Source of the DNA: Eledone cirrhosa
Lineage: Eukaryota
Direction of reading: 5' to 3'
NCBI GenBank assembly: GCA_964016885.1
Contig: OZ024742.1
Coordinates: 65,596,001-65,660,000, forward strand
Length of the DNA: 64,000 bases
Under the pieces are notes generated by a model. That model was given only the letters and a program-made list of their open reading frames with translations, was not told where the DNA came from and searched no databases. Each line of letters opens with the position of its first letter. Position 1 is the stretch's first letter. Below, in pieces: positions 1,430 through 48,317 of the stretch. The translations under genes and the position numbers were made by a program.

Positions 1430-1831
1430 TAGGAAAATGTTCAAGACCCCGACGGCAGAGCTCAAGCCCTTTCGACGTCGAAACGGCTTGAGCTCTGCCG
1501 TCGAGGTCTTGAACATTTTCCTATTACCCACTGTACTACCCTAAGTATTGAGTACTCTGGTGCGTTATGGTCCACCTGGTTCCTTACCACACTTCCTTGG
1601 TTATATATATATATATATATATATATATATATATATATATATATATATATATAACAAAGGAATTGTGGTAAGGAGCCAGCTGGACGATAACGCACCTTAG
1701 GGTAGTAGAGTGGGAAATGGGAAAAAGTATGACCCCGACGGCAGAACTCAAGCCGTTTCGACGGCTATTTCTGGACAGAAATAGCCGTCGAAACGGCTTG
1801 AGCTCTGACGTCGGAGTCATACTTTTTCCTA
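1430..1831. mobile_element. Two tail-to-tail copies of TA-embedded fold-back element F2 (3' half of a hammerhead)
   Basis: Each copy has an internal inverted repeat and the motif GAA-ACGGC-ttgagctct-GCCGT-C-ggggtc. A third copy lies at 41620-41847. Confidence 0.75.
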
Positions 1832-2487
1832 TATATATATATATTATATATAATATATATATAATATATATATGTATATATATACATGTACAATATATTC
1901 CCTCCTCTGGCTAAGCGCTTGCGCACTCTGTATTTGCGTAATTTGCCTAAAGGCATAAGTTGTCTCTACCCGTTTTGTTATGTCCCAATAGGTAATCAAA
2001 TGAATGGTATCGACCTTAATATACCAAAACTGTAGTGATTTCTAGATGGGACTGTCCGCCTTTCCGTTGTTTTTTTCCATTATCTTTGTCCCCTGCGCCC
2101 CTAATTAGTATTTATATTCTAAAGACAGAGTCATGCGGCTCTTTTTGAAACTATCATATAATAGACATCAGGCAGATGCACTGGTGATTGTCACAACACT
2201 GGTGATTGCCTTTGCTTTTTTAGATCTGAACTATGTTGCCGTCTTCCAACAGATTAATACACACACGCACCACACGTATATATGTACACACACTGACATA
2301 TATATATATATATATATATATATATATATATATATATATATATATATATATATATATATATATATATATATATATATACATATATATACATATATATATA
2401 TACTATGTATTAAATAAATGCAAATGTTCATAACGTAAAATTCTACATAGAATCTTGTCTATATTCATGCCAGTAGTTGTTGAGTGA

Positions 2488-2536
2488 GTGTCACTGATGA
2501 AAGATTTACAAATCTTGAAACTGTACTGTCTGACAT
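2488..2536 (+). ncRNA. Type I hammerhead ribozyme
   Basis: gtgtca CTGATGA aagatt-taca-aatctt GAAAC tgtact GTC tgacat: perfect core, 6-bp helices I and II, GUC cleavage triplet. Confidence 0.85.
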
Positions 2537-3081
2537 TTTTAAACGTACTGACAACTCTGTGATATATGCACAGAGAAAAATAGAGAAAAACAAATTTTTC
2601 TTTACGAAAAAATATTTTCTTTGATAGCGAGGCAACCCATATGTTTATTCTATATAAATGTATATATAGTATATATATATATAATATATATATATATATA
2701 TAGTATATATATATATATATAGTATATATATATACATATATATGTGTGTTTTCATATACATCTCTGTTATGCTTAAACGTTGTCTTAGTGCTACTGCCAA
2801 TTAAACATACTTATCCACACACACACATATATATATATGCATATGTGTATATATATATATATATATATAAGTATGTATACGTACCTACATATATGTATAC
2901 AGACGTACAGTATTATGTATATATATATATATATATATACATGCATACATATATATATGTACGTATGGATTCACCGAACATTTATTATAATGCTCGGTGT
3001 GTTTGTAAAGAAAGATCCCGAATTAAGCCGTACAGTGTCTAGCAACCATCGTTGCTCATTTGTTCAACACTGACAAAGGAA

Positions 3082-3122
3082 CGCTGTACTGGTTTCAAGC
3101 TTATTAGCTATCGTCAGCAACG
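3082..3122 (-). ncRNA. Type I hammerhead ribozyme (F5)
   Basis: Minus strand: cgttg CTGACGA t-agct-aata-agct-t GAAAC ca GTA cagcg. Confidence 0.8.
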
Positions 3123-3855
3123 TATACCTTCCTGCCAGATGGTTGAACGTCTGAAAGTATATACTTTCCTTATGCATATTAACGGCTGAGCAGCCTAATT
3201 TGCATATCGAGTGAGTTAATCGGCCGGGGAACCGAAAACGATAAACGGAAAAAATGAAACGAAATTTCATTTCTCACTCTTAGTACGGTTAGTACGGCTG
3301 TTACTTAAATATAAGTATGTATACGTACATACATATATGTATACAGACGTACAGTAGTATATATATATATATATATATATATATATATATATATATATAT
3401 ATATATATATATATATATATATATATATATATATTAATAATATTAATTAATATATATATATATATTGATAAAAATTCGTTGTACTGCCTCTCTGTTTTGT
3501 TCCTGATCAAATTTTTCCATTATATATATATATATATATACATACATGAACACATATATATATGTACGTATGGATTCACCGAAGATTTATTATAATGCTC
3601 GGTGTTTGTGTAAATAAACATCCCGAATTAAGCTGTACGTCTGTATACATATATGTATGTACTTATACATACTTATATTTAAGTAACAGCCGTACTAAGA
3701 GTGGGAAATGAAATTTCGTTTCATTTTTTACGTTCATCGTTTTCGGTATCCCGGCCGATTAACTCACTGGTTATGCAAATTAGGCTGCTCAGCCGTTAAT
3801 ATGCATAAGGAAAGTATATACTTTCAGACGTTCAACCATCTGGCAGGAAGGTATT

Positions 3856-3896
3856 CATTGCTGACGATAGCCAATAAGCTTGAAACTAGTACAGCG
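3856..3896 (+). ncRNA. Type I hammerhead ribozyme (F5)
   Basis: cattg CTGACGA tagccaataagctt GAAAC ta GTA cagcg. Helix III is the palindrome ACTAGT. Confidence 0.8.
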
Positions 3897-44648: not shown

Positions 44649-46436
44649 AATATGGTTTTATAAAGATATTTTCCATTTATTAATATTATTGATATTATAT
44701 ATTTTGCTTGTTTTAGTATATATATATATATTTGTTTTAGTATATATATATATATATATATATATATATGAAAAAGTTTGTCCTTCATCAGTGGTCTTCC
44801 AACCGTCATAGGCATTTCATCGCTTTAAAGACCCCATATACCTCAGGTTGGTGCGAGCAACGGCTAAAAAAAGTCGTTGGGACACGTAAATAAAGGGGAC
44901 TCTAGGGTAAACAAACAAAATGGTTTAAGCAACAGAAAGTGATGAAGAAAGAGACAAGTCCCAGATTTCTATGAATATAAATTCGGTGAAATCGTGAACG
45001 AGAGAATAAAGACCATCAAACCTGGTTGAAATGTGAGCAAGGAAGGAATTTCGCACAGGTCTAACGGGAGGATGCCAATAAGAAACACACGCACCAGTTG
45101 GTTTTATATATATATATATACATTATATATATATATATATATATATATATATAGTTTTAATATAGATGAGATTCTCATCTATATTAAAACTATTATACTC
45201 TGCTATGTATTGAGTACCTTACTTACTGTGGTTACCTCCGATTCAACCCGGAATAACGTATATATATATATATATATATAAAACCAACTGGTGCGTGTGT
45301 TTCTTATTGGCAACATGACCCTCTCAAAGCATAACAACATCGTTTTCAACACACGTTTTCAGATAAAGAATCTTACTAAACAAATTCAGAAACGAATTAT
45401 ATATATATATATATATATATATATATATATATATATATATATGTATGTATATATATATATATATATATATATATATATATATATATATATATATATATAT
45501 ATATATATATATATATATATATATATATATATATATATATATATATATATACATATATATATATACATATATATATACCCTTCACTCACTCACTCTCTGT
45601 TACTACCTCTCCTCCTCCTCCTTCTTCCCGTTTGACCTGTGCGTAATTCTTTTCTTTCGCACGCTTGGTCAGGCTGGTTCGCCTTTTTTCTCTCTCTCGT
45701 CTACGATTTCACAGAACTTATGTTCACCGAATTCACAGGCTAGATCCCTTCTTCCTCCCGTTAGACCTGTACGGAATTCCTTCCTTGCTCACATTCCAAT
45801 CAGGTTTGATGGTCTTTATTCTTTCTCGTTCACAATTTCACCGAACTTATATTCATGGAAATTTGGGACTTGCCTCGTTCTTCCTCACTTTTCGTTGCTT
45901 CACCATCTTTGTTTGTTTACACTCTCGCTGTCCCCTTTATTTACGTGTCCCAACGACTTTTTTAGCCGTTGCTCGCACCAACCGGAGGTATATGGTCTTT
46001 AAAGCGAAGTAATACCTGCGATGGTTGGAAGATCACTGACGAAGGACCACTTTATACATATGTAACCCATTTACAACCACGCAGCACGTTTATTCTCATA
46101 TATATATATATATATATATGTATATATATATGTATATATATATATATTTATATATATATATATATATATATATATATATGTATATATATATATGTATATA
46201 TATATATATATATATGTATATATATATATATGTATATATATATATATATATATATATATATATATATATATATATATATATATATATATATATATATATA
46301 TATATATATATATATATACGAAAACAAATATATATATATATATATACTAAAACAAATATATATATATACTAAAACAAGCAAAATATATAATATCAATAAT
46401 ATTAATAAATGGAAAATATCTTTATAAAACCATATT

Positions 46437-46483
46437 TATTTTATTATACGTATTTCAAGGGTACGCTTTCGTCAGATAAAATA
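46437..46483 (-). ncRNA. Type I hammerhead ribozyme (F1), inverted twin of 44602-44648
   Basis: Exact reverse complement of 44602-44648. Confidence 0.85.
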
Positions 46484-47083
46484 TAATAATTGGTGTTATG
46501 ATAGTGACATATCTTCATGTGAACTTAATGTTATAAGTTCAATGAGGATAGTGAATAGAGATGTACACATGTTCAATACTCAAGGGAAATATGCTAATGA
46601 GGATAACGTTAAAACTGAAAAGAGCCATTAAGTTTAGATGCTAGATACCTTTTAAATACTTATTTAAATCTTTTTAAGGGTTTGCTATTAAATTTGAAAA
46701 AATTATTGTAGAGTTATTTTAGAATTATTTATAGAAATATTCATATATATATACACCCAAAGATATATACATTGGTTTAGAAAGAATGATATAATTATAC
46801 TTATTTATTTATTTAATTTTTTAAATATATATTTTAAGAATGTGGAAGAATATGGAAGAATATTTTATAATATTTAGATGAGAATTATAATGTATTGTAT
46901 TAAATTATAAACTATTAATTCATTAAAGCAATTACAACAATATAATATGTAAATGAAATATAACTGTATTTTCGTATACGAGTGGATATATTTTTCACAT
47001 ATATTATGAATGTAGTTATAAATATAATGTATTGTAGTATAATTATATATCGTTATTTAAATATAATTATTTAAATATAAATA

Positions 47084-47272
47084 GGGCGGTGGATTGGCAG
47101 TATCGGTAGAGAGTCGGACACCATGCTTTCCAGCATAGTTACGTCCCTTTACGATCTGAGTTCAAATCCCGCCGAGGTTGACTTTGCCTTTCATCCTTAC
47201 GGGGTCGATAAAATAAAGTACCAGTAATGCACTGGGTAATTGCTGGCCTTGTGCCTAAAGTAGAAACAGTTA
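47084..47272 (+). mobile_element. Full-length tRNA-SINE (short form)
   Basis: A-box-like ggattggcagtatcggtag and B-box gagttcaaatccc. Flanked by the duplication ttatttaaatataa. Confidence 0.9.
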
Positions 47273-48203
47273 TTTAAATATAATTATATATCGTTATTTA
47301 AATATAATTATATATCGTTATTTAAAAAATAAATTATTATTTATTACATAAATGATTACGCGTGAATATAGATCTTATTTAAGTATGTATAAAGACATAG
47401 AATTACAAATGAGCCTAAGATAGATCAAGCAATAATATATATGTATTTTATACATATAGTTTAAGAATGTGAAAGTAATTATATTTTTTAAGTAAAGGTG
47501 CAGACGCTATTATTGCATATGGTTAGTAATATAGTATTTAAATTTTTATGCAAGTTGAAATGCAAGCAAAGAACATTTTTTAAGGGAAGATAACTCTAAT
47601 ATTTAGTAATTTAAGGAATGTTTACGTTGGCTATTTAATAACATATTGTTTCATCTAATGTTTAACCTAATAATTAATCATAATTTATATTATAATATAA
47701 GTAAAAAATTCATATAATATTTCAGAGCACCATATTGTAAATATGGTTATAATAGTTTTTTACATTGTATAAGAAATATTTATATGTATAACTTTAAGAA
47801 CATTTAAAAACAATTAAAAATATATATTGTAAATAGGTAACTTATATAGACCATAGTGTAGTAGTTTCTATAAATTATAAATATTGTGAAATATTCTGGA
47901 GAATAGATGCAAACAAGAATTAAATATTTCCTTTTTTTTGTTAATAATATTACCAGGATTGGTAATTATATGAAAGGTTTCTTCAATACTGAGATGACAC
48001 ATTCTTGAGAGAGCCATAATTTGGTAAACTGGCGCATCGATATTTTTCTCCAAGAGATTGAATAGTCAATGTTATTGTCTTTTAAAGACCTAATTAATAT
48101 ATTTGTTGCCCCGAGTGTGTGGTCTTGATAAACGCTCTCTGTTGTTTTTGCCGAGGATAAGTAAGTGACATAGTCACTACTTTAAAACGGATAGCGAATG
48201 GTC

Positions 48204-48317
48204 TTCTAAATGTTTCTAATTAAACATACAGTATATTGCCAAATGCACTATACATACATGAATGTATGTATAGTGCATTTGGCAATATACTGTATGTTTA
48301 ATTAGAAACATTTAGAA
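48204..48317. repeat. Perfect 56-bp-arm hairpin following a decayed hammerhead (48146-48198)
   Basis: Arms 48204-48259 / 48262-48317. Confidence 0.9.

Follow-up and report, generated by a model that had tools for sequence, protein, structure and literature searches.

Head-to-head insertions of Penelope-like elements in (TA)n of the Eledone cirrhosa genome and the pairing of two family-fixed end sites

Inverted repeats in the window and the elements behind them

The DNA analyzed here (the window) is a 64,000-nt stretch of the Eledone cirrhosa genome (GenBank assembly GCA_964016885.1, contig OZ024742.1, positions 65,596,001 to 65,660,000, forward strand). An earlier note on it had pointed to 13 near-perfect inverted repeats with tiny or short loops, and all 13 are present at their positions. 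Zero- and 1-nt loops occur. Scanning with simple repeats masked (arms of at least 18 nt, gap of at most 150) returned 16 inverted repeats in the window and none in any of 20 shuffled versions. Over 1,064,000 nt, made up of the window and 100 random stretches of 10 kb, the number was 137, of which 74 have (TA)n directly adjoining an outer end. The hairpins thus exist and are abundant; they are insertions of Penelope-like elements (PLEs) in (TA)n, arranged head to head, and the assignment to PLEs agrees with the earlier note.

The typical layout is (TA)n, an inverted arm, an arm with a tail, and (TA)n again; X denotes the usual (TA)n-joined end of the inverted arm and T that of the tail. Nine of the 13 repeats fit, eight by script (those at 1430, 1718, 14441, 26992, 38900, 41698, 43343, and 45152) and the one at 57405 by eye. 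Two (335-381 and 13781-13948) are variants, i.e., head-to-head PLE pieces whose inverted arm halts far upstream of the family's usual site, and two are unrelated: the palindrome at 48204..48317, of different geometry, is folded tail-to-tail where family F10 has its X site, the F10 tail coming next, and the hairpin at 27458..27549 has neither a (TA)n flank nor a tail.

Family F2 accounts for three insertions. The first (1432..1601, plus strand) consists of an inverted X arm (1432-1476) and a direct arm with an 80-nt tail running to T (1477-1601), joined without a loop at 2 nt of microhomology (CG) and bounded by (TA)n at both sides. The (TA)26 run at 1602-1653 is common to it and to the second, which lies in reverse orientation (1654..1829, minus strand; T end 1654, X end 1829). 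The third (41621..41844, minus strand; T end 41621, X end 41844) has arms extending 71 to 72 nt upstream of X. Each of the three shows 2 to 4 mismatched pairs between its arms. F3 forms two insertions, one at 14436..14637 (plus strand; T end 14637), in which the X arm stops with an extra G at the putative transcription start, and one at 45154..45258 (plus strand) with arms of 18 to 22 nt and 3 nt of junction microhomology. A solo F3 copy (39226..39474, plus strand) has the T end and no inverted arm; it carries a TATAAATA box at 39305 and the putative start at 39337, immediately 5′ of the putative hammerhead core.

Single insertions joining an X end to a T end (X+T) belong to F6 (43345..43543), F4 (26994..27313, the loop deriving from the T arm), and F5 (38901..39156), all on the plus strand. 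Three more X+T insertions lie beyond the 13 repeats: one of F8 (10347..11284, minus strand) with identical arms of 333 nt and two of F1 on the plus strand (26688..26935 and 43578..43882), in the former of which the T arm begins downstream of X, so that the arms do not overlap. A diverged hairpin with tail at 57405..57623 (plus strand; family not mapped) has the same layout and, by eye, a hammerhead-like core. As for the variants, the F9 head-to-head piece at 13781..14357 (plus strand; junction near 13892) has an inverted arm that misses the family X site by about 310 nt and borders on a different, truncated element, which a later deletion would probably explain. At 112..381 (minus strand) an F1 arm with tail is joined to a 23-nt inverted arm, forming the 335-381 palindrome, and the outer end of this short arm lies elsewhere than at X.

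The F2 stubs correspond to the 3′ repeat and tail of a 3,531-bp unit with an open frame of 784 amino acids (aa). Long F2 copies and a young F2 subfamily were found genome-wide, the young copies in tandem 3,531-bp units. The frame contains motifs of a reverse transcriptase (RT) and a C-terminal endonuclease (EN), i.e., YRDD at 415 and YIGLT at 673, in addition to RWR at 104, DKT at 184, CNCPDRSIC at 639, CNLC at 737, and CKH at 765. A Pfam search gave no match on this frame and, on a related 422-aa piece, RVT_1 alone (E=0.033); with Pfam uninformative, we base the RT/EN assignment on the motifs. F6 and F7 copies continue by eye into EN-like frames, and F6 shows, likewise by eye, an RT with a C-terminal EN at locus L035. 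Since F2 traces to a PLE unit and F6 and F7 to EN-like frames, the hairpins represent short PLE insertions. The many intact 784-aa F2 frames in the genome indicate a very recently active family. One 16-kb insertion (L171-L172; G000:C1:437198051-437214406) comprises 4.6 tandem F2 units differing at one base.

Hammerhead core boxes are visible by eye in most families, as are stems, and are canonical in F3; the F2 core we take to be, from its appearance, the U3-A8-type variant. No hammerhead was among the 150 of 304 matches listed from an Rfam scan, and those matches were sub-threshold hits of microRNA type only, caused by palindromes and microsatellites. Minimum-energy folding of the F2 ribozyme region as a single sequence did not form the hammerhead (z 0.69). 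A G-to-T change in the GAAA box of the F2 core recurs in about 9 of 30 direct arms (L001-L030), and in older insertions the paired arms often disagree over it; the change, which the query sequence has as well, may reflect either a hotspot or a variant of the source.

By its motifs and (TA)n insertion, F2 appears to match the Hydra clade of PLEs as defined in PMC8557442: C-terminal EN, RWK, DKT, a CxCX5C linker, CxxC and CxH, and insertion in (TA)n. It shares with that clade the C-terminal EN, RWK (as RWR), DKT, CxCX5C, CxxC, CxH, the (TA)n target, and, by eye, a hammerhead-like core. It differs in its length, 3.5 kb vs generally under 3 kb in the clade, a comparison confined to F2. Tandem units forming pseudo-long terminal repeats (pLTRs), an inverted 5′-truncated copy, and a one-sided tail were all observed in F2.

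Two end sites and their pairing

In eight of eight families, the (TA)n-joined ends were bimodal, falling in roughly equal numbers at X and at the tail end T, 39 to 97 nt apart (duplicate loci were removed before the end-site, pairing, and extra-G counts). A single study supplied raw short reads of three samples, reduced-representation data with few start positions; these included 2,600 to 2,925 reads ending at X and 7,398 to 10,149 ending at T, running into (TA)n, together with opposite-strand joints that recurred between samples.

The earlier note had one arm primed terminally, reaching the element's 3′ end, and a short arm primed wherever internal AU-rich microhomology offered itself. A TA-type site does mark the end of the inverted arm for 6 or 7 of the 8 families, but the internally ending arm is not always the shorter one. 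Each family reference has 7 to 23 alternating TA sites between X-150 and T, which are scarcely used, and F2 had 23 ends at X and none at six other TAT/ATA sites. The ends thus pile up at one X despite many alternatives, i.e., the internal end site is family-fixed, and opportunistic AU priming is ruled out by site usage. Terminal priming fares no better: in the F2 tandem unit X and T are both internal and both directly precede TAT, so that the long arm stops short of the 3′ end of the unit. Nor does the expected TA microhomology hold for every arm end, as CCATT follows the F5 T site in the sole tandem copy seen, leaving no match there. The self-complementarity of (TA)n, which the note took as the cause, may help; against its being the cause stand the F5 T site and a PLE of Anolis that extends both strands in vitro without target homology (PMC11167929).

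The two sites are paired. Script-based pairing in random DNA gave 68 of 68 pairs as X+T, and in targeted loci 59 of 63. Among 15 young multi-kb F2 insertions fetched (five chosen for listed opposite-strand pairs, four as tandem arrays, and six as single hits), both ends were visible in 13, all of them X+T; all six chosen as single hits were X+T as well. F9 provided four further loci with X-type and T-type ends head to head and a fifth across two overlapping loci. Independent choice of sites would yield symmetric pairs about half of the time, in contrast to the near-exclusive X+T observed.

Some loci are more complex. At L044:2467-2965, a palindrome centered on an F2 X+X hairpin also mirrors the neighboring element and TA run and looks like a secondary inverted duplication. 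Head-to-head joins of different subfamilies or families occur at L149:1344-1457, L052, and L113, from either template switching or later deletion between neighboring insertions.

Arms, junctions, and neighboring repeats

Toward the junction, F2 arm ends cluster 52 to 60 nt upstream of X. An extra G absent from the natural sequence was present at 6/10 F2 ends at X-58 vs 11/73 elsewhere (p=0.004), and at 5/9 vs 5/37 (p=0.015) without length-biased loci. In F3 it was found at 9/9 arm ends of one start site vs 1/10 informative ends elsewhere; L019 and L086 show it in both arms, though the pair of hairpins in L019 may be duplicates. In LINE elements, the 5′ cap is copied as an extra G, and the G seen here is likely such a cap copy. 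Its presence at fixed arm ends, with a TATA-like box 29 to 32 nt upstream of the putative start, points to a capped transcript that starts inside the pLTR.

The two arms vary in relative length. In 50 random pairs the X arm reached further 5′ in 25 and the T arm in 9, the two being equal (within 2 nt) in 16; arms overlapped in 42 and lacked any overlap in 8, a configuration that one folded-back cDNA cannot give. Among the young insertions the X arm was the longer in 8 of 13, measuring up to 16 kb vs a T arm of 281 nt. Arm lengths were significantly correlated in the random set (rho 0.56), and in L174 the inner ends lie 13 nt apart after 3 kb.

Of the 29 junctions free of insertions, 16 showed microhomology of at least 2 nt, where 17.5% would be expected (p=5e-6), a test that used 64 of 114 pairs (pairs that were unmapped or at a reference edge, or that had a gap over 45 nt or identity under 92%, were excluded). 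An overlap of 1 to 4 nt is seen in 11 of the 13 young junctions and filler in the other 2.

About nine haplotypes coexist in the young F2 subfamily. The two arms of one insertion nevertheless had no discordant haplotype site in any of the 13 young insertions (two with short overlap), whereas such full agreement was seen in 17 of 132 cross-pairs (unit positions 2925-3085, a microsatellite, were left out), and 19 private variants were found in both arms of 6 young insertions. Hence, regarding the earlier proposal that both cut ends prime cDNA on the same RNA, antisense copies are present at both target ends and the shared haplotypes fit one template, whereas the short-arm/long-arm scheme that came with it does not suit the young insertions with a longer X arm.

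Units within one tandem array are nearly identical, but in one array a variant is common to units 2 and 4 and missing from unit 1. Either linear tandem transcripts or ribozyme-made circles, the latter proposed in PMC4209133, may have served as templates for multi-unit arms. A young F2 arm of 4.5 units at L180:6670-10000 (G000:C1:91489170-91492500) passes at its inner end into a head-to-tail array of a 55-bp segment of the open reading frame, repeated about 60 times or more, suggesting iterative slippage at the cDNA end that seeded a minisatellite. Pieces of an unrelated repeat, also present in the window near 8400-8710, serve as filler between PLE arms at L079:7140-7409 and L075:7140-7792, and at L084:5646-6220 a symmetric head-to-head copy of this repeat lies between (TA)n runs.

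The window also contains other repeats. Three copies of one, 95% identical, occupy 13446-13782, 19152-19488, and 50381-50717, the first being cut where the inverted arm at 13781 starts. A TATG/CATA-rich repeat forms a nested inverted/direct arrangement at 2860-4170 (434-nt arms at 93%) and makes hairpins in L044 and L061, too. Positions 6560-7080 hold what is presumably, by eye, a decayed Tc1/mariner transposase fragment, and 11410-12190 a long low-complexity tract of (CAC)n type.

Priming at two ends as a probable route of PLE integration

We regard these insertions, with a probability of about three in four, as the result of both cut target strands priming on the same capped RNA, one at X and the other at T, followed by end joining of the two cDNAs. 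The element protein, probably as a dimer, would cut both (TA)n strands, and one target 3′ end would be set at X and the other at T, aided by the TAT match where present. Both enzymes would copy in the direction of the RNA 5′ end, and the enzyme that started at T would displace the cDNA begun at X. Starts within the first pLTR, some 60 to 140 nt from the transcription start, would leave short stubs, and starts at a repeat unit further downstream would give multi-kb arms. The cDNA 3′ ends would then be trimmed and joined via 0 to 6 nt of microhomology or locally templated filler, and the gaps filled. Trimming before joining would account for the varied fold points among copies of one family, an observation of the earlier note that was borne out. 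The note was likewise right about twin priming itself, and wrong about the terminal primer and the opportunistic AU sites.

Several observations weigh against this scheme. We infer all of its steps, i.e., the double-strand cut, the priming of both ends on one RNA, strand displacement, host end joining, and the dimer, from genomic scars. The targeted loci include symmetric pairs (3 T+T and 1 X+X of 63), and the script missed four in the random set that were recognized by eye (an F2 X+X, an F1 T+T, an F9 X+X, and a symmetric copy of an unmapped family), one of them within a larger palindrome including flanking DNA. Because 109 random-set ends remained unpaired (solo copies, locus edges, diverged copies, and some spurious low-complexity matches), twin priming may be called frequent, though perhaps not universal. 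Inserted or unaligned bases, often local repeats, occupy 35 of the 64 well-mapped junctions, and some junctions recur or are duplicated. The arm-length correlation was weaker, and not significant, in the tail-query set (rho 0.37, p=0.12), and conversion between arms, or a pair of RNAs from the same source locus, could also produce shared haplotypes. Neither of two window junctions tested in reads (near 13892 and at 14441) was bridged; contigs over 13780-13884 were discarded as confirmation of the former since that stretch is natural family sequence. Finally, the Anolis PLE Poseidon (PAc) showed in vitro neither target homology nor a strand preference for either start site (PMC11167929).

Four other explanations were weighed. 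An asymmetric complex could instead hold two RNA molecules, usually from the same source locus, one primed at X and one at T. This would produce multi-kb overlapping arms without strand displacement, it suits the X+X pair in L149, whose arms are of two subfamilies, and the Anolis protein is predicted to dimerize (PMC11167929). We nevertheless consider it unlikely, as none of the 13 X+T insertions mixes haplotypes despite the number that coexist, and the inner arm ends are correlated in the random set and close together in L174.

Fold-back self-priming, in which one cDNA or antisense transcript folds, is back-copied, and jumps to the other target end, has been proposed for bdelloid PLEs, and inverted-junction palindromes are so read in PMC3846280. 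It accounts for the shared private variants and could make rare T+T copies such as L026. It predicts, however, a loop of at least about 3 nt that always derives from the tail-bearing arm, whereas the loop came from the X arm in 25 of 50 pairs and zero-loop junctions and an extra G on both arms occur. The nonoverlapping arms and the very long X arms facing a short T arm are equally at odds with it, and a back-copy halting at one fixed site is left unexplained. Self-priming is thus contradicted for most copies and seems very improbable as the general route.

The one-sided tail might also come from staggered EN cuts of a double-stranded tandem or inverted intermediate rather than from two priming sites; PMC8557442 ascribes the tail "most likely" to EN-mediated resolution, and such cuts would also produce strict X+T pairing. 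As both arms run antisense from the target ends, with inner ends that vary independently and can both bear the extra G, and as RT starts have been mapped in vitro to both tail boundaries (PMC11167929), this origin seems very unlikely. Amplification or assembly chimeras, for which the unbridged window junctions might speak, are extremely improbable given the mismatched arm pairs in the window F2 copies and the family-fixed X/T rule; raw reads of three samples, moreover, contain X and T ends running into (TA)n by the thousand, along with matching opposite-strand joints.

The architecture itself is already published. Partial tandems, an inverted 5′-truncated copy, an often one-sided tail, inverted-junction palindromes, and (TA)n targets are described for PLEs in PMC8557442 and PMC3846280, and the EN-positive elements among them resemble those of E. 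cirrhosa in having tandems, the inverted copy, the one-sided tail, palindromes, and a (TA)n bias. The published tails measure 30 to 40 nt, with EN resolution or antisense self-priming suggested, vs 39 to 97 nt here; what goes beyond that layout is the counted pairing of one X with one T and the evidence for a single template and a cap G. The closest mechanistic parallel is PAc, for which both target strands were cut and extended in vitro from two internal RT starts bounding the tail, on RNA uncleaved by the hammerhead (PMC11167929). Two internal start sites bounding the tail and use of both strands are common to PAc and the present PLEs; unlike in PAc, a TAT follows each of the two F2 sites, and an X end is paired with a T end. 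The accessible text of PMC11167929 draws no link from PAc priming to head-to-head insertions.

In LINE-1 twin priming, the other target end primes a second RT on the same RNA and the inverted cDNAs are end-joined with microhomology (PMC11702581). The likeness lies in two antisense cDNAs of one RNA, deduced here from the shared haplotype, and in the microhomology joins. In LINE-1, however, the second primer sits beside the stop of the first cDNA, so that there is hardly any overlap between the arms, and the poly(A) is where the first primer lies (PMC11702581), while here both sites are fixed and internal and most arms overlap, giving palindromes. T being internal in F2, there is no RNA-3′-terminal first primer, and target-site duplications are unreadable inside (TA)n. 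Overlapping arms and the use of two fixed internal sites thus set the mechanism apart from that of LINE-1. In the literature searched, mostly the main texts of openly accessible papers, none was found to state that PLEs undergo twin priming at two fixed sites.

In terms of genome structure, about 130 hairpins per Mb would extrapolate to roughly 400,000 in 3.0 Gb, part of them non-PLE, making these hairpins a large source of palindromes in E. cirrhosa. PMC8557442 treats the origin of PLE tandem and inverted ends and of the one-sided tail as an open problem, and PMC11167929 leaves the steps after priming unvalidated. We lean, at somewhat better than even odds, toward two-ended priming being the normal route of PLE integration, with one complex, two fixed sites, and a single capped RNA, and with no second strand made by the RT, each complete insertion consisting of two antisense cDNAs joined by host end joining. 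If true, this would give the hairpin stubs, the inverted pLTR, and the tail at one side a common explanation, and the X+T counts provide sharp predictions (one X plus one T, one template, a capped start) for the existing in vitro system.

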